DNA from: a virus
Lineage: Duplodnaviria; Heunggongvirae; Uroviricota; Caudoviricetes
Strand: one strand, 5' to 3'
DNA length: 64,000 bases
Virus record (IMG/VR): IMGVR_UViG_3300024308_000004
Coordinates: 38,641-102,640 of that record
Below are positions 4,792 through 46,913 of the stretch, piece after piece. Below the pieces are notes generated by a model. The model was not told where the DNA came from, searched no databases, and saw only the letters and a program-made list of their open reading frames with translations. Within the stretch, counting starts at the first letter, position 1; the number at the start of each line of letters is the position of its first letter. The translations under genes were made by a program, and so were the position numbers.

Positions 4792-4830
4792 CATTCACGC
4801 CAAGGTTTACACTGGCGTTAACACTCACGC
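4786..4830. repeat. Two 14-nt direct repeats (CGTTAACAYTCACGC) in the gmk-cobT intergenic region
   Basis: ccgttaacattcacgc at ~4786 and cgttaacactcacgc at ~4816, each containing a GTTAAC palindrome. Possible operator or promoter element. Confidence 0.4.
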
Positions 4831-4871
4831 TATCATTACAACGCGTTGACGATCAGCGCACAAGGAAAAAC

Positions 4872-6851
4872 GTGACAAACAGGGCATTGAAAAACATTGC
4901 GGAGATTGCGGAGGTCGTGGCTCGTGTCACGCGCATCCTGTCGGGCCGCAATATTCAGGTCATCCAAGAGGGCCTGAAACTCGGCGTGGAGTACGATTCA
5001 CAGGGCGCTCCCGTCCGTGTGTATCTGCCCTCGCTGGTGGACAATCCGTCCGACGAACTGCTGGTTGCAGTGCATGGCTTCCTCGACCGCGAAGTCTCGA
5101 CCCTTTTGTATACGGATCATGCGGAGACCCATCGTCGCCGCATGTCTCCGCAGTACGGCAAGAAGGGTATGCACCGTGCGATGCAGAGCGTCGTTGAAGA
5201 AGTCCGCACCGAGCGCAACATGCGCCAGGACTTCGTGGGCTCGGCTCACAACTTCAACAAGAACCACGAATTCGCAATCGATGAAATCCTGGAGCCGGAG
5301 TACAAGAAGCTCCGGGGTACGGATCGTATGGCGTTGCTCGCAATGCCCGCGATCCGTGCAGCAGCGGGTGATCCGCGCTATCAGAAGTTCATGGACGGCA
5401 AGTGGGAGTCGCTGGGCAAACTCGGTGGTTCGATCCTGCATTACGCCGATGACATTGCTGAGTCGAAGACCACCAAGGACACGTATGAGCTGACCGAAAA
5501 GATCATGCGTCGCTGGGAAGAGGAAGAAAAGAAAAACGGCGACGACGAAGGTGATGGCGACGGTGACGGTAAGGGCAAGTCGAAAGGCGAAGCTGGTGCC
5601 GATGATGCCGACGGTGGCATGGGCGCTGGTGGTGGCGAAGACGACGACAGCGAAGCTGGTGAAAACGGCGAAGGTTCTCCGTATGAGAATCTGGACAAGA
5701 AGAACGAGCACCTGGACAAGCGCCATGAACAGGATGACGCCCGCGACCCGAACTCAGGTAGTTCTGGCCAACAGCAGGGTCTGACCGAGTTCAAGAAGGA
5801 CTTGGAAGATTCGTTCGCCGCTTCTGATTGGAACTCCAAGTATGAGGAGAAGATCAAGAAGCTCGCCAAGGATGAACAGTCCACTGCGCCGTATGTGCCG
5901 TATTCGCGGCAGTACGATTATGTCGGTCCGTTCCCCAATGCCGACAAGCAGATCGCCCGCTTCTCGACCACGCAGACTGCGCTCAAGGTGTACGAGCAGG
6001 CTGTCACCAACTCGCATGTGATCCAGAACCAGATTCAGAAGTTGTTCATGGCGAAAGCTCTGGTGCGCTGGGAACCCGGTCTGCGTCGCGGCAAGATCAA
6101 CGCGACGAGCCTGCACAAGCTGCGCACTGGTGACCCGCGCGTGTTCCGTCGCAAGATTGAATCGGACGACCGTAACATTGCGGTGTCGTTGCTGCTGGAT
6201 ATCTCCGGCTCCATGTCCGGCTCAAAGGTTCAGTACGCAGCCATTGCGGCCTTGATGTTCTCGCAAGTGCTGTCGAAGCTGAATATCAGCCACGAGATTT
6301 CGTGCTTCTCCACGTACTACGGATCCTACATGGGCAGTGCCTTGCCCGACGCCGATGCCATCAACAAAATGCTTTCGGGCATTGGTGCAAGCCGTGGTTG
6401 GGGTGTGGGTGCAGTCAGTGGCATCACGTATGGTCGCTATGCGCCCATCACGAACTACATCGCCAAGTCCTACGACGGACGACTCGATGAATCCACGAAG
6501 CGCCTGATCTGCATGATCCCGGATGGGTTCAGCAATCTCCGCGCCAACAACGTCGATGGTGAATCCGTCGCAACTGCGGGTCAGCGTCTGCTGGCTCGAC
6601 AAGAAAAGCGAAAGGTGATGATCGTAATGTCAGACGGCAGTCCTGCTGCTGACGGCGATGGTCGCGCTCTCGCAAAGCACCTGAAAGATGTGGTCAAGTC
6701 ATTGTCACAGCAGGGTGTCGAAATGCTTGGGCTGGGTATGCTGGACAGGTCTGTCACGCATTACTATCCCAAGTCTGTAGTGGTTAACGAGGTGGAAGAT
6801 ATTCCCACCAAAATTCTGGAACTCACCAAACAACTGGTCGTCGGAGCGTAA
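4872..6851 (+). CDS. von Willebrand factor A domain protein, CobT-like (partner of the CobS-like AAA+ ATPase)
   Basis: C-terminal vWA with MIDAS DxSxS (LLLDISGSMSG) and later T/D residues. Long acidic low-complexity linker (5512-5760, runs of D/E/G). GTG start after an AAGGAAAAA RBS; in-frame ORF opens at 4782. Confidence 0.7.
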   Translation: MTNRALKNIAEIAEVVARVTRILSGRNIQVIQEGLKLGVEYDSQGAPVRVYLPSLVDNPSDELLVAVHGFLDREVSTLLYTDHAETHRRRMSPQYGKKGMHRAMQSVVEEVRTERNMRQDFVGSAHNFNKNHEFAIDEILEPEYKKLRGTDRMALLAMPAIRAAAGDPRYQKFMDGKWESLGKLGGSILHYADDIAESKTTKDTYELTEKIMRRWEEEEKKNGDDEGDGDGDGKGKSKGEAGADDADGGMGAGGGEDDDSEAGENGEGSPYENLDKKNEHLDKRHEQDDARDPNSGSSGQQQGLTEFKKDLEDSFAASDWNSKYEEKIKKLAKDEQSTAPYVPYSRQYDYVGPFPNADKQIARFSTTQTALKVYEQAVTNSHVIQNQIQKLFMAKALVRWEPGLRRGKINATSLHKLRTGDPRVFRRKIESDDRNIAVSLLLDISGSMSGSKVQYAAIAALMFSQVLSKLNISHEISCFSTYYGSYMGSALPDADAINKMLSGIGASRGWGVGAVSGITYGRYAPITNYIAKSYDGRLDESTKRLICMIPDGFSNLRANNVDGESVATAGQRLLARQEKRKVMIVMSDGSPAADGDGRALAKHLKDVVKSLSQQGVEMLGLGMLDRSVTHYYPKSVVVNEVEDIPTKILELTKQLVVGA

Positions 6852-6857
6852 ACAACA

Positions 6858-8039
6858 ATGTCCAATGAAGAAATGATTACCTGTCAGGTTCCGGGGTGCG
6901 GCGAAACTGCCCACATCATGGAACAGCATCTGGCGTCCAAGCACCCCGAGTACAACCTGGAACGCTATCAGGCGGAATTCCCGGGAGCCCCGATCATCTC
7001 CGAGAAGGCTCGCAAGGTTCTGGCAGCCCGTACAGCGAGCGCTCGCCCCGCAACGACGGCTGAACCGACAGCAACTACCGTCGCTGTCGCCAAGAAGACC
7101 GTACAGCGCAAGCCGTTCCACGAAGTCTTCGGCTTCTCCAAGACGGATCGCGCTGCATTGTCCGCAAAGGGCGCTCCGATCGGCATCCGCGTCTTCGAGC
7201 CGGATGAACTGACTCCGGAAGCTCGCGCAACGGTGCCGGACAAGGATTCGGACTACGTGTTCAACGTGGACCTGACCAAGACCGTTGTGATGGCTCTGGA
7301 AATGAACGTGCCGATTTATCTGCACGGTCATGCCGGTGTCGGCAAGTCGACCCTGCTGGAGCAGGTCGCGCATCACACCTATCGCGGCTACACCCGCGTA
7401 CAGCACACGGCCAACATGGAAGAAGCCGACGTTGAAGGTCGTTACATCGTCAACGCGAAGGGCGAAATGGAATTCCAGAACGGTCCGCTGACCGACGCGA
7501 TGGAGCAGGGTCTCCTGTACGTCGCCGACGAATACGACTTCGCTCCTCCGATGGTGCTGTCGGTGTATCAGGCAGTTCTGGAAGGCAAGCCGCTGTTCAT
7601 CAAGGCTGCGAACAAGAAGGTTGTACCGCATCAGAACTTCCGCTTCTGCGCAACGGGTAACACGAACGGTGCCGGTGATGAATCGGGCCTGTACCAGGGC
7701 ACGATGGTCCAGAACGCGGCCAACTACGAACGCTTCGGCGTCGTGGAGAAGGTGCAGTACATGCCGCAGAAGGACGAAATCGAAATGCTGGTGCGCAAGA
7801 CCAGTATCGCCCACGAAGATGCCAAGCGTATCGTGGACTTCGCCACCAAGATGCGTGAAGGCTTCGACAAGAACGACGTGGATATCCCCATGTCGCCGCG
7901 TGCAACCCTGAATGCTGCGAAGCTGGGTATGGCACGTAACGACATGTCGTTCGGCATCAAGGTCGCGTACATCAATCGTCTGCCTGCTCGCAGTGCGGAC
8001 GTTGCACGTCAGACTTCCCAGCGCGTCTTCGGTTCGTAA
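6858..8039 (+). CDS. AAA+ ATPase, MoxR/CobS-like
   Basis: Walker A HGHAGVGKSTL, Walker B LLYVADEYD, sensor region CATGNTNG. It is the typical partner of a vWA protein. N-terminal Cys/His cluster CQVPGCGETAH. Confidence 0.75.
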   Translation: MSNEEMITCQVPGCGETAHIMEQHLASKHPEYNLERYQAEFPGAPIISEKARKVLAARTASARPATTAEPTATTVAVAKKTVQRKPFHEVFGFSKTDRAALSAKGAPIGIRVFEPDELTPEARATVPDKDSDYVFNVDLTKTVVMALEMNVPIYLHGHAGVGKSTLLEQVAHHTYRGYTRVQHTANMEEADVEGRYIVNAKGEMEFQNGPLTDAMEQGLLYVADEYDFAPPMVLSVYQAVLEGKPLFIKAANKKVVPHQNFRFCATGNTNGAGDESGLYQGTMVQNAANYERFGVVEKVQYMPQKDEIEMLVRKTSIAHEDAKRIVDFATKMREGFDKNDVDIPMSPRATLNAAKLGMARNDMSFGIKVAYINRLPARSADVARQTSQRVFGS

Positions 8040-23298: not shown

Positions 23299-23373
23299 AG
23301 GGCCGTAGCTGAGTGGTTTAGCTCTCGCCTTTTAAGCGAGTTGACGTGGGTTCGATCCCCACCGGCCCCACCA
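23299..23373 (+). tRNA. tRNA-Lys (anticodon TTT)
   Basis: Anticodon stem CTCGC/GCGAG with loop cTTTTaa. T-arm GTGGG-TTCGATC-CCCAC. 3' CCA encoded. Exact acceptor register uncertain. Confidence 0.7.
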
Positions 23374-23390
23374 ACATGAGTATCTTTAGG

Positions 23391-23466
23391 TGTGTGCGTT
23401 GACTGTATTGGTTCAGTCGCCTGATTGTGAGTCAGGAGCATGTGGGTTCAATTCCCATCGTACACC
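23391..23466 (+). tRNA. tRNA-His (anticodon GTG)
   Basis: Acceptor GTGTGCG/CGTACAC, D-stem GACT/AGTC, anticodon stem CCTGA/TCAGG with loop ttGTGag. T-arm GTGGG-TTCAATT-CCCAT. Position -1 is T, so no G-1 is encoded. C73. Confidence 0.7.
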
Positions 23467-23480
23467 CCTAAAGGTATTTA

Positions 23481-23568
23481 GGATAATTAGACGTTTAAGG
23501 AGAACGCCCCGGCTGTAACCCGGGTACCCTAACGGGTCCGCAAGGTTCGGTACCTTGATTATCCACCA
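23481..23568 (+). tRNA. tRNA-Tyr (anticodon GTA), class II with long variable arm
   Basis: Acceptor GGATAAT/ATTATCC plus A plus CCA. Anticodon stem CCCGG/CCGGG with loop ctGTAac. Variable-arm hairpin ACCC-taac-GGGT. T-arm CAAGG-TTCGGTA-CCTTG. Confidence 0.7.
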
Positions 23569-23692
23569 CATTGGACGTAAACGAAAAAGGCGTTATAGTA
23601 GGTAGAGTGCCGAGAACGCCTGAAAGACCCGAAGGTCTACGGACTAGTGAAGCTCTAGGCTCTACACGTCCAACCACACAGTAGGAGGTAAC

Positions 23693-23779
23693 ATGCTGAT
23701 CGTACAAGGCTTATTGTTCTTTGCCGTGATGCTCGCTGCCTTCTACGCCGTATGGAAAATCGGCACAACGAAAAAGTGA
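23693..23779 (+). CDS. Tiny hydrophobic peptide (28 aa) inside the tRNA island
   Basis: MLIVQGLLFFAVMLAAFYAVWKIGTTKK, preceded by an AGGAGG RBS. Confidence 0.2.
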   Translation: MLIVQGLLFFAVMLAAFYAVWKIGTTKK

Positions 23780-23859
23780 GGGGTCTTTATACCGTTAGGT
23801 GATTAGACTGTGGATACAAGTCGGGCTCTGTTGTTCACCCGAATCCTCACGAATGTTTA

Positions 23860-23936
23860 GGATTGTAAGCACAAGTGGTATATGCACCGGCCTGTTAAGC
23901 CGGGGACAGATGGTTCGAGTCCATCACAATCCGCCA
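23860..23936 (+). tRNA. tRNA-Asn (anticodon GTT)
   Basis: Acceptor GGATTGT/ACAATCC plus G plus CCA. Anticodon stem CCGGC/GCCGG with loop ctGTTaa. T-arm GATGG-TTCGAGT-CCATC. Confidence 0.7.
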
Positions 23937-24024
23937 GCCCGAATAGAGTCCGCATACAAAAACCGGGTAGCTCTCAATGGTTGTAGGTGACGATGGGTTT
24001 GTATAGGAACCTTCATGAATTCAT

Positions 24025-24101
24025 AGGCGCGTGGTGAAGTGGTCCAACACAGCAGACTTTGACTCTGCCATTCCTAGGTTCAAATCCTAGCGCGTCTGCC
24101 A
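24025..24101 (+). tRNA. tRNA-Gln (anticodon TTG)
   Basis: Acceptor AGGCGCG/CGCGTCT (one G-U pair) plus G plus CCA. Anticodon stem GCAGA/TCTGC with loop ctTTGac. T-arm CTAGG-TTCAAAT-CCTAG. Confidence 0.7.
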
Positions 24102-24120
24102 AACAACAAACGAGGACACT

Positions 24121-24393
24121 ATGAAAATCGGTGACATTGCAGCACACGGGCGTTACACTAACCGGATTGGTTTCGTTACTGCGGTCAACCACGCATCACA
24201 TGGTCCGATCAGTTCCTACGAAGTCGAGTGGCTGAACGGCTCGCAACAGGGCAAGCGGGATACGATTAGCGCATGGAACGTTGTTGACATGCAGGAAGCT
24301 CTGGAATCAGCGCGTGCCGAAGTCAACCGTCGTGAAAGCGACCTCATCAAGTGGTGTCACGCAGCAGCAATCGCAAAGATCGCCGTCAAGTAA
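24121..24393 (+). CDS. Hypothetical protein embedded in the tRNA island
   Basis: 90-aa ORF between tRNA-Gln and tRNA-Trp. Confidence 0.4.
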   Translation: MKIGDIAAHGRYTNRIGFVTAVNHASHGPISSYEVEWLNGSQQGKRDTISAWNVVDMQEALESARAEVNRRESDLIKWCHAAAIAKIAVK

Positions 24394-24397
24394 CAAA

Positions 24398-24473
24398 GTT
24401 TGGGTAGCTCAACAGGCAGAGCGCTGGTCTCCAAAACCAGAGGTTGTGAGTTCGACTCTCACCCCATTCGCCA
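24398..24473 (+). tRNA. tRNA-Trp (anticodon CCA), imperfect acceptor stem
   Basis: D-arm GCTC...GAGC. Anticodon stem CTGGT/ACCAG with loop ctCCAaa. T-arm GTGAG-TTCGACT-CTCAC. The acceptor GTTTGGG/CCCATTC has two U-U mismatches, so it may be a degenerate copy. Confidence 0.55.
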
Positions 24474-24563
24474 GTAAGAGCCGAAGTGAGAACTGGGGTA
24501 CGCCGCGAGGTCCCAGCGAGTCTGTTCCGACTATAAAAGTGTCTCACAAAGGCTCGATGTATC

Positions 24564-24639
24564 GCCGGTATAGCTCAGATGGTAGAGCAGCGCACTTGTA
24601 ATGCGCAGGTCCTGGGTTCGATGCCTAGTGCCGGCACCA
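24564..24639 (+). tRNA. tRNA-Thr (anticodon TGT)
   Basis: Clean cloverleaf. Acceptor GCCGGTA/TGCCGGC plus A plus CCA. D GCTC/GAGC. Anticodon stem GCGCA/TGCGC with loop ctTGTaa. T-arm CTGGG-TTCGATG-CCTAG. Confidence 0.85.
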
Positions 24640-24685
24640 CAAACCCGCTGTACGCCCCGGGGATAACGGGTGTACGACAAATTAC

Positions 24686-24762
24686 TGCGGGTTAGCTCAG
24701 TGGTTTAGAGCGTTCGGCTGATAACCGAGAGGTCGGGAGTTCAAATCTCTCACCCGCAACCA
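24686..24762 (+). tRNA. tRNA-Ile (anticodon GAT)
   Basis: Acceptor TGCGGGT/ACCCGCA plus A plus CCA. D GCTC/GAGC. Anticodon stem TTCGG/CCGAG with loop ctGATaa. T-arm GGGAG-TTCAAAT-CTCTC. Confidence 0.8.
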
Positions 24763-24896
24763 AAAGAGTCAGCGTGCGGGGTTCGAGACCCCGGTAGTCC
24801 GCGAGAGGGCTAAGTATTGCGGTACGACGTTGCACCTAAGTGACTATACTGGTATAGTCCGCTCCGGGGTCAGGCGTTATTGGCCTCATGTATTTA

Positions 24897-24973
24897 ACCG
24901 AGTGTAGCTCAATCTGGTGGAGCAACGCGTTTGGGGCGCGAAGGCTGGGAGTTCAAATCTCTCCGCTCGGACC
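24897..24973 (+). tRNA. tRNA-Pro (anticodon TGG)
   Basis: Acceptor CCGAGTG/CGCTCGG plus A plus CCA. D GCTC/GAGC. Anticodon stem CGCG/CGCG with loop ttTGGgg. T-arm GGGAG-TTCAAAT-CTCTC. Confidence 0.7.
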
Positions 24974-25170
24974 AAAAATGGAGGTGGTCTGCTAGGTGGA
25001 TTAGAAACCCATCGAGCATTGTTAGCCTCCAGATAAATGAGGTAGTTATTAGTAACGGCTGTAGGGCCGCCAACGTAAGACGCCTCAGATAAATAGGTGT
25101 TGAAACGGCCTTGTGTGGGCACTGTTCTGTTCCAACCTAGTTGCTAACAGTTCCAGACACCTAGATACAA

Positions 25171-25200
25171 AAAGGCCCCTCATTGAGGGGCCTTTTCTTT
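25171..25200. terminator. Bidirectional hairpin terminator AGGCCCCTC-att-GAGGGGCCT
   Basis: A runs precede and T runs follow the GC-rich stem. It closes the first tRNA block and also serves the convergent minus-strand ORF. Confidence 0.6.
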
Positions 25201-25364
25201 TACGAGCCTTGTGGCGGCTGTGCTTCCTGCAACTGCTGCACTTGGAACTCCAACATCTGAATACGACGAGACAGGTTAACAATCTGTGCCGGTGACGGGT
25301 CATCCCAGTTCGTCAGGGGTACAGCGTTGGGATCAAAGTCAAACGGTAAATCAGCCATCTCTAC
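25200..25364 (-). CDS. Possible minus-strand small protein (MADLPFDFDPN...)
   Basis: Internal ATG of minus ORF 25200-25421. Convergent with the bidirectional terminator. Acidic/Pro-rich N-terminus and Q-rich coiled C-terminus. Confidence 0.25.
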   Translation of the reverse strand, partial: VEMADLPFDFDPNAVPLTNWDDPSPAQIVNLSRRIQMLEFQVQQLQEAQPPQGS

Positions 25365-25421
25365 TACTCCTACTCCACGAATACAAGTGTCCATTGTCCC
25401 GCAAAAGTACATGCAGGTCAA

Positions 25422-25811
25422 ATGATTGCCACGTCATCCCTGTTCTATACTTGTCGCATGTTGATATACGCACGCACTCCAAAATCAAAACGCTACAAGC
25501 GTCCGGGCATGGGTGATGTAGCCAAGAAGTTACCCAAGCAGAAGTTCAAACCCAAAGCTGCGCCGAAAGAAACAAAGTTCCGCGCAGAAGGTACTGAAAA
25601 GTATCGCTCCAAGATTGACGAACACTTGGCGAATAACGAACCGGTCAACAAACAACCGTTACGTTATGAGGATGCAGACATGGCAGCACGCGAAGCGGAA
25701 GCGCAAAAAGAAATCAAGCGCAAGTCCGAATGCGTAGCGCCGGCATTCAACAAGGGAAATCTTACTTACATCGCTACCGAGGAACAAGCGAAGTGGGTAG
25801 GTAGAAAGTAA
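25422..25811 (+). CDS. Hypothetical basic (Lys-rich) protein
   Basis: ORF. Start uncertain, with alternative ATGs at 25458 and 25509. Confidence 0.35.
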   Translation: MIATSSLFYTCRMLIYARTPKSKRYKRPGMGDVAKKLPKQKFKPKAAPKETKFRAEGTEKYRSKIDEHLANNEPVNKQPLRYEDADMAAREAEAQKEIKRKSECVAPAFNKGNLTYIATEEQAKWVGRK

Positions 25812-25847
25812 CAAATCATCCGCAAAATCTCACTGAGGCTCGGTATA

Positions 25848-26111
25848 ATGCGTACCAACAAAGGCTTTACCCTCATCGAACTGATGATCGTGATGGCTAT
25901 TATTGGCATCCTGGCGTCGATCTTCTACCCCATGTGGCGTGATCGCAACCTGACGGACTATCAGCGCCAGCAAAAACGCGAAGCCCTGCAACGTGAGTAC
26001 GCCAACACAGGCGTCCGTTGCATCGGTGGTTACAAGTTTGCACAACCGGACTGGAACAATCCGCCCGTGCAGATCAAGGACAACACTGGTAACGGGATTC
26101 CGTGCCAGTAA
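25848..26111 (+). CDS. Type IVa prepilin-like protein
   Basis: N-terminus MRTNKG/FTLIELMIVMAIIGILASI: a short basic leader, then Gly-Phe and the conserved Glu5 hydrophobic helix. C-terminal Cys pair (C...C, ~28 aa apart) typical of the pilin disulfide D-region. The CGGTATAATG motif overlaps the start. Confidence 0.75.
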   Translation: MRTNKGFTLIELMIVMAIIGILASIFYPMWRDRNLTDYQRQQKREALQREYANTGVRCIGGYKFAQPDWNNPPVQIKDNTGNGIPCQ

Positions 26112-26225
26112 GTAAATGGTTAGAAGTGGTCGTCTAAACCTCCATGCAAGTCGGGAAGAGACTTGGGCTATTCGGATCAGGACACTGCCGTTTGAGGCAG
26201 AGATAATCTTCAACCAGATTTAAAC

Positions 26226-26310
26226 GGGCCGTTGGCGAAACAGGCATACGCAGCAGACTTAAAATCTGCCGGAGAAATCCATGAGGGTTCGATCCCCTCA
26301 CGGCCCACCA
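26226..26310 (+). tRNA. tRNA-Leu (anticodon TAA), class II
   Basis: Acceptor GGGCCGT/ACGGCCC plus A plus CCA (perfect). Anticodon stem GCAGA/TCTGC with loop ctTAAaa. Long variable arm. T-arm GAGGG-TTCGATC-CCCTC. Confidence 0.85.
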
Positions 26311-26326
26311 CTTTAGGAGATACACG

Positions 26327-26536
26327 ATGGACCTGTATGAAACGCTGGGCTTGAAGCGCCCAACCAAAGAAGAAATGGAAATGCACCACGTCGCAACGAT
26401 CGGCGACCTGGAAGTCAACGCGTCGGAACACCTGGTCAATGTCAAGTGCGACGGCGAAGTCATCCTGGCCATCATGCGCCACGATGGTGGCTTGCAGGAG
26501 CTGGTCGATGCCCTGCAATCGCAGGTCAAGCCGTGA
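26327..26536 (+). CDS. Hypothetical small protein
   Basis: 69-aa ORF with an AGGAG RBS. Confidence 0.35.
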   Translation: MDLYETLGLKRPTKEEMEMHHVATIGDLEVNASEHLVNVKCDGEVILAIMRHDGGLQELVDALQSQVKP

Positions 26537-26703
26537 CCAAGGAAGAGGGCGATCAGATTCGCCTAGCGTATGGCAAGGTACTGACATACGCGGACAAGGC
26601 GATGAAAACTCCACCAGGTGTGCATCGTCGGATCGCCTTGAACGAATACTCCAAGGCGAAGAATGAATTCCGGGCGTTGTTGCGATCCCTGGAAGGCAAG
26701 TAG
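26536..26703 (+). CDS. Hypothetical small protein
   Basis: GTG/ATG overlapping the upstream stop. Start uncertain; in-frame ORF from 26446. Confidence 0.3.
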   Translation, partial: TKEEGDQIRLAYGKVLTYADKAMKTPPGVHRRIALNEYSKAKNEFRALLRSLEGK

Positions 26704-26706
26704 GGA

Positions 26707-26779
26707 GTTCTAGTAGCTCAGTTGGTAGAGCAGCCGCCCTGTAAGCGGTGTGTCGGGGGTTCGAGTCCCTTCTAGTGTT
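26707..26779 (+). tRNA. tRNA, second Thr-like copy (anticodon TGT with atypical C33; no CCA)
   Basis: Acceptor GTTCTAG/CTAGTGT (one mismatch). D GCTC/GAGC. Anticodon stem GCCGC/GCGGT with loop ccTGTaa. T-arm GGGGG-TTCGAGT-CCCTT. Confidence 0.5.
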
Positions 26780-26946
26780 GACAAGGACACTTGTCATAGT
26801 AAACCCCGATCAGGATGATGCGTCCCTAGAAGACTTATTCATCCTTCTTAAGTAGGGTCAGATAGTTTAACGGCGAGAACGCCCTGCGAGCGCGGGGAAG
26901 TAGGGTTCGAGTCCCAGAAAACAGGTGTAATCACCTGGATCCGATC

Positions 26947-26985
26947 AAGGCGTATAACTATTGTGGTTATACGCCTTTCTTTTGT
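26947..26985 (+). terminator. Rho-independent terminator closing the tRNA island
   Basis: AAGGCGTATAAC-tattgtg-GTTATACGCCTT followed by TCTTTTGTT. Confidence 0.7.
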
Positions 26986-27080
26986 TCTAGGGCAGTGAAT
27001 TGTTCAATTAACACCGTGCGATTCTTAAACGCGCCGTGTAAATATTCTCTAAAATCACTGCACACAGACGAGAAAGTAAC

Positions 27081-28040
27081 ATGGATCATTTCAAGGACGT
27101 GAAGGTTGTTGATTCATCCGACACGAACGTTTCCAAGTATGTGTTTGACATGGGCTCGGCAGTCGCCGAAGCCGTACTGTATAAGTACGGAACCTATGAA
27201 GAACGTACCGTGATCTGTTGCTCCACCCAGTCAGGCTGCCCCATCGGTTGCCGTTTCTGCGGAGCCGGTGATGCGTTCGTTCGTAACCTGTCTGCGGAAG
27301 AAATCGTCGCGCAGGTGGATCATTTGTTCGCGGATCGCAACATCGATCCAACCCAGGTCAAGCGTGGACAGATCATGTTCATGTCCATGGGTGAACCGTT
27401 GCTGAACCTCAAGCAACTGATCCCGGCGATGGAGGTCCTGTACGCCAAGTACCCCAACTTCGCGTTGCTGATTTCGACCAGCGCTCCGCGAGTGGATTTC
27501 ACGCCGTTGTTCCGGGCAGCCGCGCTCATTCCGACCATTGGTTTGCAGTTCAGCGTCCACGAATCTACCGACGAGGCGCGTGACCGGCTGATCCCGTTCA
27601 AGAACAAGTACACCATCGCCGAGATTGCCATCCTCGGTGATATTTTCCACACCACTACGGGGCGTCAGGCGTTCTTCAACTACTGCGCCCATACGGACAA
27701 CACCGCGCAGGAAGATGCTGACCGCATCCACGCGCTGTTCAATCCTGCATCCTTCCAGGCAACGGTTTCGGTCATCTGCGAGCGGGATGAGTCCATCGCT
27801 GCTGCGAACGAACGACAGCGCGAACTTGCTACGGGATTCATGGGTAAGCTCTTGCAAAAGGGTTATTCCGTTCGCACATTCGACCCTGCTGGTCAGGACG
27901 ACATTGGAGGTGGCTGTGGTCAACTCTGGTTCGTGCAGGATTGGATGCGTCAACACCCTGATCTGGCCCGACCGTCCGTCGGTCGCGGGCTGCCCACTGT
28001 TCACACTCCACGAGCCATCGACGTAAAGGTGATCGAATGA
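27081..28040 (+). CDS. Radical SAM RNA methyltransferase, RlmN/Cfr family
   Basis: Family-specific signature ICCSTQSGCPIGCRFCGAG (CxSxQxGC-x3-C-x2-C) and FMSMGEPLLN (RlmN GMGEPLxN). At 319 aa it is shorter than bacterial RlmN. Confidence 0.8.
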   Translation: MDHFKDVKVVDSSDTNVSKYVFDMGSAVAEAVLYKYGTYEERTVICCSTQSGCPIGCRFCGAGDAFVRNLSAEEIVAQVDHLFADRNIDPTQVKRGQIMFMSMGEPLLNLKQLIPAMEVLYAKYPNFALLISTSAPRVDFTPLFRAAALIPTIGLQFSVHESTDEARDRLIPFKNKYTIAEIAILGDIFHTTTGRQAFFNYCAHTDNTAQEDADRIHALFNPASFQATVSVICERDESIAAANERQRELATGFMGKLLQKGYSVRTFDPAGQDDIGGGCGQLWFVQDWMRQHPDLARPSVGRGLPTVHTPRAIDVKVIE

Positions 28041-28315
28041 CCCAAGAAGTAGAGGTATCCGATGACAGCGAGCCAGCTGAAATCGAAGGCGAAATCCTTG
28101 AAGCGGACGACCTGACGTACTTCGTCTCCGGACCTTCGTGTGGCTTCATCGTCCAGGGCAAGCAATACATCAAGCCCATGACCATTGCGGCGTGCATGAT
28201 TAACGGCGACCCCGAGGAAGCATACACGCACCAGCAGGTCAAGTCCGTCGCAGTCGTTCCGCAACAGCCGTCAGTCCATCTGATGACCCGTCGCCACAAT
28301 ACCACCTTGCATTGA
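28037..28315 (+). CDS. Hypothetical acidic protein
   Basis: ORF overlapping the rlmN-like stop. Confidence 0.35.
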   Translation: MTQEVEVSDDSEPAEIEGEILEADDLTYFVSGPSCGFIVQGKQYIKPMTIAACMINGDPEEAYTHQQVKSVAVVPQQPSVHLMTRRHNTTLH

Positions 28316-28322
28316 GGCATTC

Positions 28323-28535
28323 ATGTTCGATCCCGCAATTACCGACCTTTACAAGCGCGCCCATGAACTGCGCAACGCCCAGCGGAACTACATCGCAGAC
28401 GGCACGCGCAACGAAATCCTGGGCCGAGAAGTCCACAACGCAGCCGAACGTCTCGATGCGGCGTTGCAAGTCGTAGAAGATGAAGGCTACATTGCGGAGA
28501 AGGATATCCGCGACGTGCGCCCGGTGACGCCGTAA
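28323..28535 (+). CDS. Hypothetical protein
   Basis: 70-aa ORF. Confidence 0.35.
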   Translation: MFDPAITDLYKRAHELRNAQRNYIADGTRNEILGREVHNAAERLDAALQVVEDEGYIAEKDIRDVRPVTP

Positions 28536-28708
28536 TGTGGGTCTTGATCCTGACCCTGGCGATGCGTGGTCAAGCTGTTACGGTAACCACGCAGGACGGC
28601 TTCGCGTCGCAGGAATCCTGCATGATCGCCGCGAAGGCATGGACGGAACAGGTTGAAAGGATGCCACTCAGCAATCTGCACCGACGCGCCCTTTGTGTCC
28701 GCAAGTAA
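28535..28708 (+). CDS. Small secreted/membrane-anchored protein (57 aa)
   Basis: MWVLILTLAMRGQA signal-like N-terminus. Under 60 aa, so not in the ORF track. Confidence 0.3.
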   Translation: MWVLILTLAMRGQAVTVTTQDGFASQESCMIAAKAWTEQVERMPLSNLHRRALCVRK

Positions 28709-28884
28709 GCCCGTTACTTAACGCTTCTAGGTCTTCACGAAACGCGTATACTAATCACATGTCGCAGCGATCTACATCCGCTGCGATAACAGAACCAAGC
28801 GTGATGGCTTGTGGTTGTCACAGAGGGTGACACTAATGACCGGGGTAGTGCCCGGGTACCCTTCGACTCTGGTGGGAAGCCAGA

Positions 28885-29006
28885 GACCATAAGAAGTTCT
28901 GCTGTCCAACACCCGCATTAACGTGATGCCGGTGTAAGCAAAGTCCTAGTCGATTACCTCCTAGTTGCCGAATAGGACGGACAGGGCAGCAGAACTTCTT
29001 ATGGTC
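28885..29006. repeat. Perfect 20-bp inverted repeat forming a ~120-nt stem-loop (GACCATAAGAAGTTCTGCTG ... CAGCAGAACTTCTTATGGTC)
   Basis: Arms at 28885-28904 and 28987-29006 in a 310-nt noncoding region. The 3' arm abuts the GAGGAG RBS of the gene starting at 29019. Confidence 0.6.
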
Positions 29007-29018
29007 GAGGAGATTCAC

Positions 29019-29216
29019 ATGTCTGCCAAAGAAGTAGAACTGCCGCGCGGGGATACGTTTGATTCCCAGATGCGCAGGTACACCTTCAGTGAGGGTCAGG
29101 TGCGTGATATCCTGACCATCTATACCCAGAAACAGCAGGATGAAATTGATCGCCTGCGTTCTGAGGTTGACGGTTTGAAAATGAGTATCGCCCTTGCTGA
29201 AATGGGCGATGAATAA
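29019..29216 (+). CDS. Hypothetical protein
   Basis: ATG at 29019 after a GAGGAG RBS (in-frame ORF from 28965). Confidence 0.4.
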   Translation: MSAKEVELPRGDTFDSQMRRYTFSEGQVRDILTIYTQKQQDEIDRLRSEVDGLKMSIALAEMGDE

Positions 29217-29241
29217 CCACAGACGTTGATGGAAAGAAATC

Positions 29242-29592
29242 ATGTCAAAGCCTGATGCGGCGTTGTTCGTTCTGGTAGGCAGGAAGCCGGCCTACAACAA
29301 GATTTTCTTGGCGCCAAAGTCCGCGTTGCAGTGGTGCTATAACGCGGACTACGGTGACCAGCCAATACCAAGGAACGTTCTTGGTGATCTGACACCGTTC
29401 CTGGACTCGGATTACGATGGCGATCCTGCAACGGACACGTTTGACATTACTCCGGGGTCTGCCGATAATGACGTAGCGCTGGCGTTGAGCCAAGTATGCC
29501 GCGCGTTCAAGAGTCCGATTGAAGCGATGGAATATGCGTTCGCGCATTACACCGTCAATTCGGCTGACTGCTACACGGGTCTGGAATATTGA
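29242..29592 (+). CDS. Hypothetical protein
   Basis: 116-aa ORF immediately upstream of the tmRNA gene. Confidence 0.5.
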   Translation: MSKPDAALFVLVGRKPAYNKIFLAPKSALQWCYNADYGDQPIPRNVLGDLTPFLDSDYDGDPATDTFDITPGSADNDVALALSQVCRAFKSPIEAMEYAFAHYTVNSADCYTGLEY

Positions 29593-29927
29593 CCTAGGTT
29601 TATGGTTGTATGACGTGAAGTGAAGGGTGCTTGGACGGTGGTTCAACTCCACCCAGGTCCACCACAAATCAGTCTTAGTCGAGGTGCCGGCGTTACTGGC
29701 TGAGACTGATTTGTAATGGGCCTGCCGGGTTTCGACAGGCGCAGATAGCAGAACCGACAACTAAGGGTAGGCACTCCTTGACGCACACGCGTCGATAGTC
29801 CACAATAAAACATAATCGCCAATGACGACATGTTTGTGGTGGCCCTCGCGGCCTGATCCACTGGGGTCTTGAACGACCTTATTACCCAATAGTTCACGAT
29901 AAGCCCGAGGTCCGCCTCGGGCTTTTT
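29593..29927 (+). ncRNA. ssrA: Circularly permuted (two-piece) tmRNA gene
   Basis: Acceptor piece ending ~29664 with T-arm GGTGG-TTCAACT-CCACC and CAGGTCC-A-CCA. Inter-piece hairpin 29665-29713. Coding piece starts at 29718 with GGGCCTGCCGGGTTTCGACAGG, so G3:U70 plus A73. Tag ORF 29818-29856 (ANDDMFVVALAA then stop). Terminator 29902-29927. Confidence 0.8.
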
Positions 29928-29987
29928 CGTTGTGCAGCATCCCATATTTAACCTAGATATAGTGATTGCACACACTGGAGAACGTCA

Positions 29988-30430
29988 TGACCACGTATGC
30001 AGTAGTTGATCCACGGGATATCCGTGACGACGCGGAGCAGGCTGAACTGGGCCTGACACGACTGCTCGGTATACGGTTCGAGGAACTTGCCGATGAAGTC
30101 TACGAGGACGAAGAAAACAATACCTTCGGATGGTTCGGTCTGCGTAAGGTCCAGAAGCGCTACAGCCGTCGCCAGATCGGTCAGTGGATGCAGGAAATCC
30201 TGAACGACGCACCACGCAGCAAGGACAATGGCATCCGCGATTACTGGTCAGCGCAAGGCACACAGTTCTCCTACGCTGGCTACAAGCATCACGTCATCGA
30301 TCCGGTACGTGACCTGATCCGTGCGGCGCGTGACCTGAACACGCAGGAACTACGCGTTGACGCGCGTACCATGCGTCTGTTTGAGGATGCGTATGCTGCG
30401 GGCGCTCGCCGTTACGAGCCCGAAGAATAA
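29988..30430 (+). CDS. Hypothetical protein
   Basis: ORF; start at ATG 29988 or 29966. Confidence 0.45.
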
Positions 30431-30460
30431 TCAACACACAATCACACGCACATACAAACC

Positions 30461-30967
30461 ATGAAAGCCATTCAGAAAATCATCCTCGACGGGTCGACCA
30501 CGCAAGTGAACCTGATCGACAACGATGCGGTCGAGGTCCACCACGTACCGCTCGCAGAGCTGCCGTTCTTCCTGATCGAACTGGCAGTGACGGACAAGGG
30601 CATCGATGCTGCCGCCACTGCGACGATCACTCACTCGCCGGAAATCGTACAGGCTATCCAGGACGTGAAGACTGCCCTGGCAGGTATCGGACTGGATGCA
30701 ACCACAGCAGGCGTGTTTGCAACGACCTTCTGCGGCGATACCCGGGACGAAATCACTGCCATGTCGGACTCGGTATTGAACGCCATCGCCAAGCTGCTGC
30801 GTGAATCTGGCTTCAAGTCCAAGGCGTTCGATGGACGTTCGTACACGGGCAATCTGACCTGTGTTGAATGGCTGGAAGGATTCCGTTACGGTTTCATCCG
30901 TGCGTCGGATGAAAAGCTCCAGCAGGAACTGGAAGGCATGTTGCAGCCCGAGATTGGTGCATGGTAA
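30461..30967 (+). CDS. Hypothetical protein
   Basis: 168-aa ORF. Confidence 0.45.
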   Translation: MKAIQKIILDGSTTQVNLIDNDAVEVHHVPLAELPFFLIELAVTDKGIDAAATATITHSPEIVQAIQDVKTALAGIGLDATTAGVFATTFCGDTRDEITAMSDSVLNAIAKLLRESGFKSKAFDGRSYTGNLTCVEWLEGFRYGFIRASDEKLQQELEGMLQPEIGAW

Positions 30968-31037
30968 TCAACCGTCATTTCATCATGACGCCGTTTGTTA
31001 CCAGTACATAATACTCACGCAACGCAAACAACTTAAC

Positions 31038-31129
31038 GGGTACGTGACTGAGCTAGGCTTAAGGTGCCGGTCTTGAAAACCGATGACGGGGTGACTCGTC
31101 CGTGGGTTCAAATCCCACCGTACCCTCCA
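31038..31129 (+). tRNA. tRNA-Ser (anticodon TGA), class II
   Basis: Acceptor GGGTACG/CGTACCC plus T plus CCA (perfect). Anticodon stem CGGT/ACCG with loop ctTGAaa. Long variable arm. T-arm GTGGG-TTCAAAT-CCCAC. Confidence 0.85.
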
Positions 31130-38447: not shown

Positions 38448-38782
38448 GTGGACGCCTCGTGTTGGTCAGCGCGTGCAATTGAATAAGGTGGGGTATGCAA
38501 CGCTTCACCTGACTTCCAACGAAGCGCATGAACAAGCCAAGCAAATGGTGATTACGGATGTGGAGAACCTCGGGTACGCACATGCGCCCATCTGGGCCAT
38601 CGAGGTTGACCAGCCGCTTATCAATGTTTTCCTCCTCGACTCGTCAATGGTCGACCCACTCTTTTGAGGTGTCTATGATCGGCTTCATCAAAGCAATCAT
38701 CCAAATGATTCGTGACGGTTTCGCGCTGCATCATGCGGCTCACCGTCGTCACGGTGGCAACCCCTGGAAATAAGGAACCAAT

Positions 38783-42115: not shown

Positions 42116-42569
42116 GAAGCTTTGTAAGGATTGTGAAGTAGAAATGACAGAGGAGAACACCTATAAATCAGGTGGCTCTTACTGCAAACCTTGTGCGCAA
42201 GCGCGGACTCGCAGACACTACCACGAAAACAAAGAAAAGCGGGTAGAGTACGGCAAGACGTATAAGAAAAAGACCAAATACCATCAAAGGACTTGGTTAA
42301 AAGAAAAGTTAGCCTGCCTTGAGCATTACTCGGGCGGCAAGCCGTACTGTAAAGGTTGCGGCATAGAGAACTTAGAGGTTCTCACTATCGACCACATTCA
42401 CGAAGATGGCGCTGCTCACCGAAAGGAAATTGGGCAAAGCGTTCAACGCTGGTTGATTGCAAACAAATTCCCCGAAGGTTTTCAGGTGCTTTGTTGGAAT
42501 TGCAACAACGCCAAGCATCGTCATGGCGAAATTCCTCGGTATACTTATCGGCAATTAACCGGAGTATAA
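42114..42569 (+). mobile_element. HNH homing endonuclease ORF (low-GC insertion-like cassette)
   Basis: HNH motif LTIDHIHEDG ... CWNCNNAKHRHG plus N-terminal zinc-finger Cys pairs. Visibly lower GC (eyeballed as mid-40s percent) than flanking DNA. Confidence 0.8.
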
Positions 42570-42571
42570 CC

Positions 42572-43135
42572 ATGGCCACAATCAAAGTAATGGGCATCGA
42601 CGCGGCTTTCTCAAACGTCGGATTCGCCCTGACAGAAATGGACTTAACGAATCCCAAGAAAGCCATTGTGAAATTGCTTGATCTGCATATTGTGCAGACA
42701 GAGGGATTAAAGAAACGCCCGAAGGGTGTTCCTAAGTCCGCAGATGACATGCGCCGAGCGCGTGAATCCATCGAAGCGATCCGAGCCAAGATCGCAGAGT
42801 GGCAGCCCGACTACATCGTCGCGGAAGTTCCATTCGGCTCACAATCCGCACGTAGCGCTTGGACTCTAGGTATCGCCCTGGGGATTTTGTCGTCCATTGA
42901 TGGCTTGATTCAAGTCACCCCACGACAAGTCAAGGCAGCGACCGGTGAGGCGTATGCTGACAAAGAGGAAATGATTGCGTGGGCAATGGACAAATTCCCG
43001 GATGGTCCTTGGAAGATGCGCAAGTTACACGGCAAATACATCCAAGTGGCATCAACCAACGAACATATGGCCGACGCAGTTGCCGCCACGTTCGCGGGAA
43101 TTCCAGAGATTTACGGGAAGATGCAAGCATCTTAA
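42572..43135 (+). CDS. RuvC-like Holliday junction resolvase
   Basis: N-terminus VMGIDAAFSNVGFAL (compare RuvC ILGIDPGSRVTGYGV), acidic DYIVAEVPFG, and C-terminal EHMADAVAATFAG (compare RuvC DAADALAIA). GC lower than the phage average, as for the HNH gene. Confidence 0.6.
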   Translation: MATIKVMGIDAAFSNVGFALTEMDLTNPKKAIVKLLDLHIVQTEGLKKRPKGVPKSADDMRRARESIEAIRAKIAEWQPDYIVAEVPFGSQSARSAWTLGIALGILSSIDGLIQVTPRQVKAATGEAYADKEEMIAWAMDKFPDGPWKMRKLHGKYIQVASTNEHMADAVAATFAGIPEIYGKMQAS

Positions 43136-45303: not shown

Positions 45304-46779
45304 ATGTCCCTGTTTGAAGAACGTATTGCCTTCAAGCCGTTCCAGTATCCCTGGGCATACGAGGCTTGGCTGACTCAGCAAAAGATGCACTGGCTGCCGG
45401 AAGAAGTTCCGATGGCTGACGACGTGCAGGACTGGAAGAACAAACTGTCGCCCAACGAGCGCAATCTGGTTACCCATATCTTCCGGTTGTTTACACAGTC
45501 CGACGTGGAAGTTTCCAAGTCGTATCATATGGTCTACATGCCGCGCATCAAACCCATCGAACTCCAGATGATGCTGGCTTCCTTCCAGAACATGGAAACT
45601 ATCCACGCTGCGGCTTACTCGCACTTGCTGGATACGCTGGGCCTGCCTGAAACCGAGTACAACAAGTTCCTGGAATACCAGGCCATGAAGGACAAGTGGG
45701 AAACCTGGCAGAACTACATGGACCCGCAGACGGATGAAGAACTCGCCCTGTCGATGGCAGCGTTTGGTGGCTTCACCGAAGGCGCACAGTTGTTTGCATC
45801 CTTTGCCATGCTGTTGAATTTCCCGCGTCACAACAAGCTCAAGGGCATGGGTCAAATTATCACTTGGTCGGTTCGTGACGAAACGCTCCATTGTGAATCG
45901 GTAATCAAGTTATTCCACGCGCTGTTGGCTGAAAAACCCCATCTGAATACCCCGCGCCTGCGTGAACTGATCGAAACCCACGCTCGGCAGGTTGTTGAGC
46001 AGGAAGACCGGTTCATTGACCTGGCGTTTGAAATGGGCGATCAGGAAGATTTGACCGCAGAGGATATGAAGCAATACATGCGGTTCATTGTTGATCGCCG
46101 TTTGATCCAGCTGGGTTACAAGGGCATCTTCAAGGTCAAGGAAAACCCCCTCGACTGGATGGATACCATGCTGAACACCGTGGAACACGTCAACTTCTTT
46201 GAACAGCGTGGCACTGAGTACGCCAAGGCTGCGACGCAGGGCGAATGGGGCGATGTGTGGGACATGGTTGACAGCGTTGGTAGCGACGAGTGGGTGGTTT
46301 ACAGCAAGGACGGTTGTGGGTTGTGCGTTGAAGCCAAGCGTATGTTGGCTGATCGCGGTATTCACCCGACGGTAGTAGACCTGACCGATGATGCAGAACG
46401 CGCGGCGTTCTACGAGCGCACACCGGGCATTGACTACATGCCGTTCGTAACCAAGAACGGTCGTCCGATCGGTGGTTGCAACGAGCTGGATGAATTCCTG
46501 GCCGGCAATGAAACTTACCTGGAACTCAAGCCTGTATCTGAATGGGTGGTTTACAGCAAGACAGGCTGTCCGGGTTGCGTTGTAGCCAAGCGCCAACTTA
46601 CACAGATGGGCTTTGAGTACGAGGAAGTGGTCTGCGATGAAGAAGACACCCGCAAGGACCTGTACGCCAAGACCGGACTACGCACGATGCCTATCGTGAT
46701 GCACCGTGGTCATGTGGTTGGTTCCAGCAACGACCTGCGGAACTACCTTAATGCTCACCGTGAAGAACTGACCAAGTAA
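45304..46779 (+). CDS. nrdB: Ribonucleotide reductase small subunit NrdB fused to two C-terminal glutaredoxin-like domains
   Basis: Ferritin-like R2 core (~320 aa) followed by two ~80-aa repeats, each with VVYSK-x-GC-x-x-C (CGLC and CPGC) and a C-terminal glutaredoxin fold signature. Confidence 0.85.
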   Translation: MSLFEERIAFKPFQYPWAYEAWLTQQKMHWLPEEVPMADDVQDWKNKLSPNERNLVTHIFRLFTQSDVEVSKSYHMVYMPRIKPIELQMMLASFQNMETIHAAAYSHLLDTLGLPETEYNKFLEYQAMKDKWETWQNYMDPQTDEELALSMAAFGGFTEGAQLFASFAMLLNFPRHNKLKGMGQIITWSVRDETLHCESVIKLFHALLAEKPHLNTPRLRELIETHARQVVEQEDRFIDLAFEMGDQEDLTAEDMKQYMRFIVDRRLIQLGYKGIFKVKENPLDWMDTMLNTVEHVNFFEQRGTEYAKAATQGEWGDVWDMVDSVGSDEWVVYSKDGCGLCVEAKRMLADRGIHPTVVDLTDDAERAAFYERTPGIDYMPFVTKNGRPIGGCNELDEFLAGNETYLELKPVSEWVVYSKTGCPGCVVAKRQLTQMGFEYEEVVCDEEDTRKDLYAKTGLRTMPIVMHRGHVVGSSNDLRNYLNAHREELTK

Positions 46780-46913
46780 CCCCTCGGTATAATGAAAGAG
46801 TCGCTGACAACGGCGACTCTTTCTTTTGGAGGGTACATGAACGAAATGCCTTATGATCCCGAGAACCACTACGATGATGGTGAGTTCCCCGAAGAACCTT
46901 AATGGAGAAACAA

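Follow-up and report, generated by a model that had tools for sequence, protein, structure and literature searches.

A tRNA-island gene of a virulent-type phage joins a prepilin-type N-terminus to a small C-terminal knob found in an apparently phage-only family

Pilus-subunit mimics have only just been demonstrated as anti-phage barriers: the prophage protein P-FimU enters host pili and blocks phages that bind the pilus tip (Sztanko et al. 2026, PMC12952977), and the same paper lists PilA-like proteins of virulent phages as untested. Here we analyse a small gene in a 64,000-nucleotide stretch of a Caudoviricetes virus (IMG/VR record IMGVR_UViG_3300024308_000004, positions 38,641 to 102,640), which we call the window and in whose coordinates all positions are given unless another contig is named. 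The gene, an open reading frame (ORF) at 25848-26111 on the plus strand, encodes an 87-residue protein (MRTNKGFTLIELMIVMAIIGILASIFYPMWRDRNLTDYQRQQKREALQREYANTGVRCIGGYKFAQPDWNNPPVQIKDNTGNGIPCQ, read from the window) in which a predicted class III (prepilin) signal and a pilin-type helix are joined to a C-terminal module of about 30 residues, referred to below as the knob.

Like P-FimU of the F10-like Pseudomonas phages, the window protein is phage-encoded, carries a prepilin signal, would use the host pilus pathway and is proposed to block pilus-dependent phages. P-FimU, however, is a full-size minor pilin with the FimU fold, is carried by temperate phages and has been demonstrated at the pilus tip, whereas the window protein has 87 residues, belongs to a virulent-type phage, and ends in an unrelated knob; its likeness to FimU/GspH covers only residues 5-49 (TIGR01708, 34.5 bits, with the cut-off at 80). 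In the PAK_P3/KPP10 group of Pseudomonas phages there are truncated PilA-like proteins of about 60 residues, also mentioned in PMC12952977, which share with it a virulent phage, a prepilin-type N-terminus and a tiny size. They were 44% identical to it over residues 1-50 by tblastn, but the match stops at residue 50, with no match to the Cys-Cys knob detected; PHROG 10597, a 59-position profile, covers residues 1-49 only. With PilA, PilE and Geobacter PilA-N the window protein has in common the leader, Gly at -1, Phe at +1, Glu at +5, Gly at +14 and Pro at +22, and its C-terminal Cys pair recalls the D-region, but it has no detected alpha-beta roll head, is encoded by a phage and has no assembly genes nearby; the window contains no gene for a PilB/PilC-type machine. 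The pseudopilins GspG, GspH, GspI and GspJ have a class III signal and the same peptidase, and the strength of the N-terminal match to them is similar to that for pilins, but the window protein scores below every one of their cut-offs and lacks a pseudopilin head. Archaeal bindosome proteins (PMC4471445), which bind sugars and do not form filaments, are a precedent for a class III signal that brings a functional domain to the surface instead of building a classical pilus fibre; those proteins, in contrast, are archaeal and cellular, have large substrate-binding domains and are unrelated in sequence.

The class III signal has been defined (PMC4471445) as a short hydrophilic leader ending in Gly(-1), followed by about 21 hydrophobic residues broken by Glu+5. 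The window protein has the leader, the Gly, the Glu and the hydrophobic stretch: its leader, MRTNKG, is six residues long, with G6 at -1, F7 at +1 and E11 at +5, and E11 is followed by 14 uncharged residues. Under the same definition, the leader length, F+1, E+5, G+14 and P+22 agree with those of T4a-type pilins. The Pfam model N_methyl (PF07963), whose cut-off is 21.2, gave 42.9 bits (E = 2.9e-11), and TIGR02532 scored 41.8 bits against 16.3. We also applied by script the PilFind rule (PMC3244431), i.e., [GAS]-x4-[DE] followed by 14 uncharged residues, no more than 35 residues from the N-terminus of a protein of at most 350 residues with a single N-terminal transmembrane (TM) segment. This check, proposed with the original prediction of the gene, matched at G6, and in a six-frame translation of the window the 87-residue ORF was the only one with a class III signal. 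The N-terminus therefore reads, as had been predicted from the letters alone and as all three models and rules agree, as a textbook class III signal with a short leader and Phe at +1, and the protein is probably processed by the host prepilin peptidase. The features of the gene are as follows.

25835-25838, plus strand: Shine-Dalgarno sequence GAGG, separated from the ATG by the 9-nucleotide spacer CTCGGTATA; read from the sequence.
25848-26111, plus strand: coding sequence of the 87-residue mini-pilin/knob protein, stop codon included.
25848-25865, plus strand: leader peptide MRTNKG, ending in Gly-1 (G6), from Pfam N_methyl, TIGR02532 and the PilFind rule; cleavage is predicted after 25865.
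25866-25931, plus strand: alpha1-N, FTLIELMIVMAIIGILASIFYP, with F+1, E+5, G+14 and P+22; membrane anchor and potential filament-core helix (helix 9-31 in the AlphaFold2 model).
25932-26012, plus strand: linker M29-G55, helical (37-51) in the clade of the window phage, from AlphaFold2 models and family alignments.
26013-26108, plus strand: C-terminal knob, VRCIGGYKFAQPDWNNPPVQIKDNTGNGIPCQ, with invariant Cys58 (26019-26021) and Cys86 (26103-26105).

The start had earlier been placed at 25841, which is the first base of a 10-mer discussed below; the ORF begins at 25848. The estimate of about 80 residues for the mature protein is close to the 81 predicted here, and the two cysteines described as about 28 residues apart are C58 and C86, 28 positions apart and conserved as a pair in the family.

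The ORF is a real gene under purifying selection. The ratio of nonsynonymous to synonymous substitution rates (dN/dS), computed with each of the two closest homologs, came to 0.21 and 0.30, and the G+C content at third codon positions (GC3) is a phage-like 0.69, the secure genes of the phage having 0.62-0.67; together with the Shine-Dalgarno sequence and homologs numbering in the hundreds, these values establish the gene. An antisense ORF of 127 residues (25830-26213, minus strand) was rejected on its GC3 of 0.51, as against 0.69, on the strand organisation and for want of any support.

The homologs form a large family of proteins of 67-97 residues with the motif R-C-[IV]-x-G-[YF]-[KR]-F...Q-[IL]-x-D-x-x-G-x-G-[IV]-x-C at the C-terminus, in which C58, G61 and C86 are invariant and R57, Y62, K63, F64, Q75, D78, G81 and G83 are conserved in at least 90%. 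A profile built on the knob only, searched against 1.84 billion cluster representatives, returned 421 representatives at E <= 1e-3; the best 150 of these were almost all small (40-220 residues), with the knob at the extreme C-terminus. The wider pattern, which the window protein fits, is an N-terminal membrane anchor with C-x2-G-[YF]-x-[FV]...Q-x2-D-x2-G-x-G-x2-C at the extreme C-terminus. Many members found by the knob-only search have no prepilin motif, from which the knob of about 30 residues appears as the conserved functional unit of these proteins, with the pilin-type anchor as a common but optional companion.

No Pfam, NCBIfam, PHROG or PADLOC model covers the knob: the PHROG matches were to N-terminal pilin-like families only, the knob by itself matched none, and PADLOC gave no hit. 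In the literature searched we found no description of the knob family, which was not compared with the four phage PilA-like groups of PMC12952977. A structure search of BFVD returned as its best match a 72-residue protein, probably that of the Xanthomonas jumbo phage XacN1 to judge by its length and style of accession only, and as its third a Pseudomonas phage protein annotated "Lipoprotein". A resemblance to the Excalibur-like calcium-binding module (PF05901) was not supported, only 1 of 22 knob sequences having matched, with E = 0.15. Five large proteins (P0231, P0281, P0298, P0316 and P0319; 997-5152 residues) match positions ~12-34 of the knob profile 7-17 times each. We judged them to be unrelated beta-hairpin repeats, probably immunoglobulin-like adhesin repeats that share a V-x-V-x-D-x-x-G-N hairpin rather than true relatives.

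The likeness to pilins does not extend beyond the N-terminal region. The AlphaFold model of the window protein (predicted local distance difference test, pLDDT, 78.6) has helices at 9-31 and 37-51, the first with pLDDT 87-95, and a small beta module with pLDDT 81-88. The model of a relative from the main clade has alpha1-N at 8-30, a hinge with pLDDT below 50 at 34-36 and a small beta meander, and provides no alpha1-C on which a head could pack; in that clade, according to the models and family alignments, the linker is instead rich in Gly, Ser, Asn and Thr, with extra beta strands. The AlphaFold models matched no pilin fold in the PDB, and no likeness to a pilin or pseudopilin head was found. 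When the family profile was compared with all PDB sequences, PilA, PilE, geopilin and GspG were matched over alpha1 only, the best matches, geopilin chains among them, having E = 1e-12 to 1e-9. All full-length pilin and pseudopilin models of NCBIfam scored far under their cut-offs, with the match confined to residues 1-50. For PilA/PilE the scores were 34.2 against 400 (NF041775) and 31.3 against 138 (NF007862), over residues 1-31 only; for pseudopilins, apart from the GspH score given above, they were 28.1 against 88.85 (GspG), 16.9 against 64.85 (GspJ) and 13.7 against 44.35 (GspI). Pfam Pilin (PF00114) did not match. The Cys pair, which in the alignments is invariant at a distance of 27-28 residues, is consistent with a disulfide staple. 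On these comparisons the protein is pilin-like at its N-terminus only and is not a conventional pilin, and within known groups its assignment goes no further than the broad class III signal superfamily. The description of the gene as a type IVa minimal pilin accordingly holds for the prepilin N-terminus, and not for the pilin fold or the full-length family models. A second pilin gene in this phage group was rejected, the window having one such ORF. A coding sequence of Xanthomonas phage JGB6 annotated as "pilin" (WEU67351, L013:1256-1792) has neither a class III signal nor a hydrophobic N-terminus; it is probably a mis-annotation unrelated to the mini-pilin.

When the whole protein is used as the seed, searches favour the pilin N-terminus, and in those 121 of 122 members have G-1, F+1 and E+5. 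The knob-only search gave a different picture. Among 145 small representatives, 83 were canonical for G-1/E+5 by regular expression and 79 passed the PilFind rule (87 if mis-called starts are allowed for), so that about 55-60% of knob proteins have a canonical prepilin signal. A further 8 keep the E+5 helix but lack G-1, about 39 are anchored by a plain hydrophobic segment, which in several contains FTLIE relics, and a handful have lipoprotein-type signals. The JGB6 homolog (KG/FTLIE, the slash marking the predicted cleavage site) and that of cyanophage BUCT-ZZ01 have the canonical prepilin form, and P0005 is among those that fail the PilFind rule.

The two modules could be compared for conservation. 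Among the 80 canonical members from the knob-only search, the prepilin-type helix (+1 to +22) has a pairwise identity of 47.8%, against a composition baseline of 13.8%; this figure includes five positions fixed by the regular expression, and the other columns are also strongly biased. The plain anchors (36 members of the same search) are at baseline, with 11.8% against 11.3%. The knob has a pairwise identity of ~50-57% in both anchor classes. Where it is present, then, the prepilin helix is selected for something specific and not for hydrophobicity alone, such as peptidase recognition and probably also recognition by the assembly machinery, and the knob keeps its function on other tethers. Asp stands at +2 in three of four further lipobox-type members. 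In E. coli, Asp+2 retains a lipoprotein in the inner membrane by avoidance of the Lol pathway, and these members would thus stay in the same place as the pilin anchor.

As far as could be tested, the knob family is apparently confined to phages. A scan by exact peptide patterns of the main clade only confirmed 66 loci in IMG/VR, where the longest contig measured 374 kb, and not one locus in a set of genomes that covered 185,579 species of bacteria and archaea with one genome each. Of the IMG/VR loci, 57 were canonical by regular expression and one more by eye. Nine contexts outside the BUCTxx99/ANB28/JGB6 group were all phage-like, with arrays of small co-directional ORFs and hallmarks such as HNH/GIY-YIG endonucleases, Thy1/ThyA/DHFR, ribonucleotide reductase, NAMPT/NadR-like, DnaB and radical-SAM genes; no pilus or secretion operon was found around the homologs in any of the nine. 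On two marine phage contigs, L008 (7208-7999) and L010 (8993-9787), a Band_7/SPFH protein with a lipoprotein-like signal (LATG/C) lies immediately upstream of the mini-pilin or one gene away from it. This could be a functional pairing, or could reflect shared ancestry of the two contigs, the two Band_7/SPFH proteins being 85% identical.

The region of the window is ~87-88% identical in DNA to the Stenotrophomonas phages BUCTxx99 and ANB28 (both ~108-109 kb), and metagenomic contigs as long as 109,890 bp encode the identical 87-residue protein. ANB28, a siphovirus, lacks an integrase (PMC11881566), and this relationship fits the earlier view of the phage as virulent. The host was expected to have type IV pili; Stenotrophomonas does have them, and they are the receptor for at least six phages (PMC9206674). 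All genes in the window are on the plus strand. The placement within a tRNA island is also confirmed: the gene lies between tRNA-Pro (24898-24974) and tRNA-Leu (26226-26310), in a run of 12 tRNA genes plus a transfer-messenger RNA (tmRNA). Neighbours of the island encode DNA ligase, DNA polymerase, an exonuclease, a UvsX-like recombinase, SbcC, RtcB and ribonucleotide reductase, and the gene is therefore in an early/middle accessory arm, outside the structural and lysis modules. The protein is only 49% identical to its BUCTxx99 version, with a 13-residue indel, whereas the four flanking proteins are 82-94% identical; on this comparison the gene is a local hot-spot of divergence or cassette exchange, and such fast divergence matches the expectation for a gene involved in conflict between phages or between phage and host.

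How might such a protein act? We tentatively favour, at somewhat less than an even chance, a PilD-processed, membrane-tethered pseudo-pilin that displays a periplasmic knob and interferes with type IV filament machinery, to the end of superinfection exclusion or progeny protection. The protein would be a two-module phage envelope protein, with the class III signal and alpha1-N followed by a periplasmic beta knob, and, to judge from gene placement, would be expressed alongside the replication and nucleotide-metabolism genes. It would be inserted into the inner membrane by the Sec/signal recognition particle route with its N-terminus inside, whereupon a host prepilin peptidase of the PilD/XpsO type would cut after Gly6 and methylate Phe7. 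The 81-residue mature form would stay in the inner membrane, held there as a pilin is before assembly, with its periplasmic knob of ~30 residues closed by a Cys58-Cys86 disulfide. Its pilin-like guise would draw it to the machinery of the type IV pilus and/or of the type II secretion pseudopilus, an attraction suggested by the specific conservation of the pilin-type helix, and there the knob would block or change the assembly or display of filaments. Pili would then no longer be available on the infected cell to other phages that depend on them or to the progeny of the phage itself, hence the exclusion or protection. This account fits the frequent use of type IV pili as phage receptors in Stenotrophomonas (PMC9206674) and the precedent of P-FimU (PMC12952977). 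A role in capping or poisoning pili, or in superinfection exclusion, remains plausible.

A broader version of this proposal, which we think unlikely but worth stating, is that a hitherto undescribed, phage-only effector, a tethered periplasmic disulfide knob of ~30 residues, is common to large virulent phages that infect many kinds of Gram-negative bacteria. In its most frequent form it would be disguised as a prepilin, and so be processed and delivered by the peptidase and type IV filament machinery of the host, with the anchor swapped where the disguise is unneeded or countered. Its range would take in Xanthomonadaceae, freshwater cyanobacteria and whatever hosts the marine and jumbo phages have, and it would amount to a general strategy for disarming pili or type II secretion, or for barring competing phages.

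Several observations weigh against interference with type IV filaments. None of the computations in this analysis identified a target for the protein. Although the majority of homologs keep G-1/E+5, 58-66 of the 145 small knob representatives have no prepilin motif. The syntenic gene of BUCTxx99 and ANB28, the nearest isolates, begins LGNQ/MTLIEW, with Gln at -1, and fails the PilFind rule, while Gly-1 is described as "absolutely critical" for processing (PMC4471445). The loss of G-1/E+5 from homologs had been named in advance as grounds for abandoning the pilin interpretation, and it has occurred in part of the family. XacN1, which also fails the PilFind rule, has a lipoprotein signal (LAIGG/C) on a knob 58% identical to that of JGB6, which argues that the job of the knob does not universally depend on pilin-type processing or polymerisation. 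The description of ANB28 (PMC11881566) reports neither a receptor nor pilus data. Finally, no conserved partner gene emerged: an all-against-all BLAST of upstream and downstream neighbours across the nine phage contexts gave only near-identical pairs.

The same observations lend themselves to other explanations. The foremost of them, though on balance we would not expect it, is that the protein is a generic membrane-tethered periplasmic effector whose target is unrelated to pili and for which the prepilin signal is one interchangeable tether; candidate targets would be the tail tip or ejection proteins of an incoming phage, a periplasmic enzyme, peptidoglycan or an outer-membrane receptor. Such a protein would account for the mixture of canonical prepilin, decayed prepilin, plain TM and lipoprotein anchors within one knob family, for the equal conservation of the knob in all anchor classes, for the close relationship of the XacN1 and JGB6 knobs under lipoprotein and prepilin signals, respectively, and for the "Lipoprotein" among the BFVD neighbours. 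The location of the gene in an early/accessory region is also that of known exclusion genes. The protein would then work like the small exclusion proteins that virulent phages tether to the membrane, such as T4 Sp and Imm, T5 Llp and T1/phi80 Cor, which agree with the window protein in size, in early/accessory location and in having a tether plus a small periplasmic domain, a lipoprotein anchor being found in some knob members. They differ from it in showing no sequence or profile likeness in PHROGs or PADLOC, and none of them is known to have a prepilin signal. The mode of action of the mini-pilin probably resembles, by analogy, both phage pilin mimics and these tethered exclusion proteins. 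A merely interchangeable tether, however, does not explain why the prepilin helix is conserved far above its composition baseline, beyond the needs of anchoring, when plain anchors are not, or why the majority keep G-1, E+5 and P+22; and the FTLIE relics in many of the plain anchors suggest that the prepilin form is ancestral and selected.

Incorporation into the pilus itself, as in the original prediction, would make the protein a true structural minimal pilin that (co-)polymerises as a major, minor or tip subunit and alters the surface of the fibre, so that pilus-binding phages could not attach, as in the P-FimU/P-PilA model. The T4a-type signal with G+14 and P+22, the existence of short pilins, the geopilin chains among the best PDB matches and the precedent of P-FimU speak for this, as does a model in which a helix of ~45 residues (9-31 and 37-51) with a small disulfide-stapled sheet forms a miniature lollipop. 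We nevertheless consider it improbable: no pilin head fold was detected, main-clade relatives have a flexible hinge in place of alpha1-C, the mature form has only 81 residues, and the family includes non-cleavable and non-pilin anchors. The near-consensus PilD recognition region could alternatively make the protein a decoy substrate or inhibitor whose abundant early expression titrates the prepilin peptidase, leaving pilins and type II pseudopilins unprocessed and stalling both machines. The Q-1 variants of BUCTxx99 and ANB28, which keep E+5 and the helix, could be dead-end pseudo-substrates of this kind, and a cyanobacterial pilD mutant is reported to suffer harm from its unprocessed prepilins (PMC8546353); but a decoy leaves unexplained both the strongly conserved knob and the members with plain TM or lipoprotein anchors, which makes it a quite improbable account. 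A lysis-related protein (holin, antiholin or spanin-like) would likewise be a small single-pass membrane protein, and there were weak matches to PHROG holins (E = 0.069 and 0.35). Those matches are not significant, however, the gene is in the tRNA/replication arm rather than a lysis cassette, an endolysin is adjacent in no context examined, and a periplasmic disulfide knob with a prepilin signal is not a feature of known holins, so that we give this explanation very little credence.

Whatever its mode of action, a large, unnamed and apparently phage-only family (421 representative clusters) joins a perfect prepilin signal to a new mini-domain, and its natural anchor swaps provide a ready-made test of what the prepilin signal adds beyond anchoring. 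If pilus or secretion machinery is the target of the knob, as in the pseudo-pilin mechanism that we tentatively favour, the knob would be a compact and widespread off-switch for type IV pili or type II secretion. In Stenotrophomonas, Xanthomonas and Pseudomonas both serve as virulence factors and as phage receptors. For the design of phage cocktails it would mean that an infected cell might resist pilus-dependent phages.

The sequence around the start codon contains one further element.

25841-25850, plus strand: 10-mer CGGTATAATG, overlapping the start codon; not evidence of a leaderless mRNA.

This overlap had been taken to mean a very short or absent 5' untranslated region. The overlap itself is real; the conclusion does not hold, given the GAGG 9 nucleotides upstream and the wrong geometry for a -10 element: a -10 hexamer that holds the A of the ATG would put the transcript start downstream of the start codon, so that the leaderless interpretation is mechanistically wrong. 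In the whole window the 10-mer occurs three times on the plus strand (at 25841, 43143 and 46785) against ~0.05 expected, whereas TATAAT is not enriched there (11 copies against ~9.8 expected by base composition). No plus-strand TATAAT copy in the window has a good -35 element, and a promoter scan of the window called none at the 10-mer site. The ~36 nucleotides preceding the ATG are conserved in two relatives, L082 and L083, in which TCGGTATAATG closes an upstream ORF whose stop codon overlaps the start codon as TAATG; the 10-mer is absent from BUCTxx99 and ANB28. A promoter or leaderless role for the 10-mer was rejected in view of the GAGG, the lack of a good -35 and the TAATG junction in L082 and L083. 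The gene upstream, translationally coupled to the mini-pilin, encodes an HNH endonuclease in L082 and an unrelated protein of ~150 residues in L083 and JGB6; the window has no such gene. In L082, a 107.7-kb relative, the HNH endonuclease-like protein of 183 residues (2450-3001; Pfam HNH 21.0 bits against a cut-off of 21.4) is directly upstream and overlaps the mini-pilin start codon.

The other two copies of the 10-mer are intergenic, 6-8 nucleotides past the stops of the ORF at 42356-43135 and of the ribonucleotide reductase small subunit gene at 45304-46779. Each has a stem-loop on its 3' side, the one at 46795-46825 with a T-run. We presume that these two copies may be promoter-plus-hairpin units like those flanking mobile gene cassettes in T4-type phages. 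On the minus strand of the window TATAAT does not occur (0 copies against ~9.8 expected). The ribonucleotide reductase small subunit has a C-terminal thioredoxin-like domain (phrog_86 at residues 4-383, phrog_22 at residues 415-488).

The 12 tRNA genes of the island, all on the plus strand, are spread over 23299-31129 and interspersed with small ORFs. The content of the island varies among relatives, ANB28 having only 5 tRNAs; in BUCTxx99 the place that tRNA-His and tRNA-Tyr occupy in the window is taken by an HNH endonuclease gene and tRNA-Met. The tmRNA, at 29572-29947, is of the permuted (two-piece) type, with the tag peptide ANDDMFVVALAA; ARAGORN and Rfam are concordant, the Rfam match (RF04321, 29604-29856) scoring 88 bits against a gathering score of 47. 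At 27081-28040 there is a radical-SAM protein of 319 residues with the motif CPIGCRFCGAG (Pfam Radical_SAM 28.9 bits, under the cut-off of 29.5). Its homologs are labelled "prohibitin family protein" in BUCTxx99 and JGB6, a label that looks wrong, and "rRNA large subunit methyltransferase N" in ANB28. At 4782-8039 a CobT/VWA-like protein (689 residues) adjoins a MoxR/CobS-like AAA ATPase (393 residues), a pair present in many large phages; on the marine contig L009 a MoxR-like ATPase and a DUF2201 protein flank the mini-pilin.

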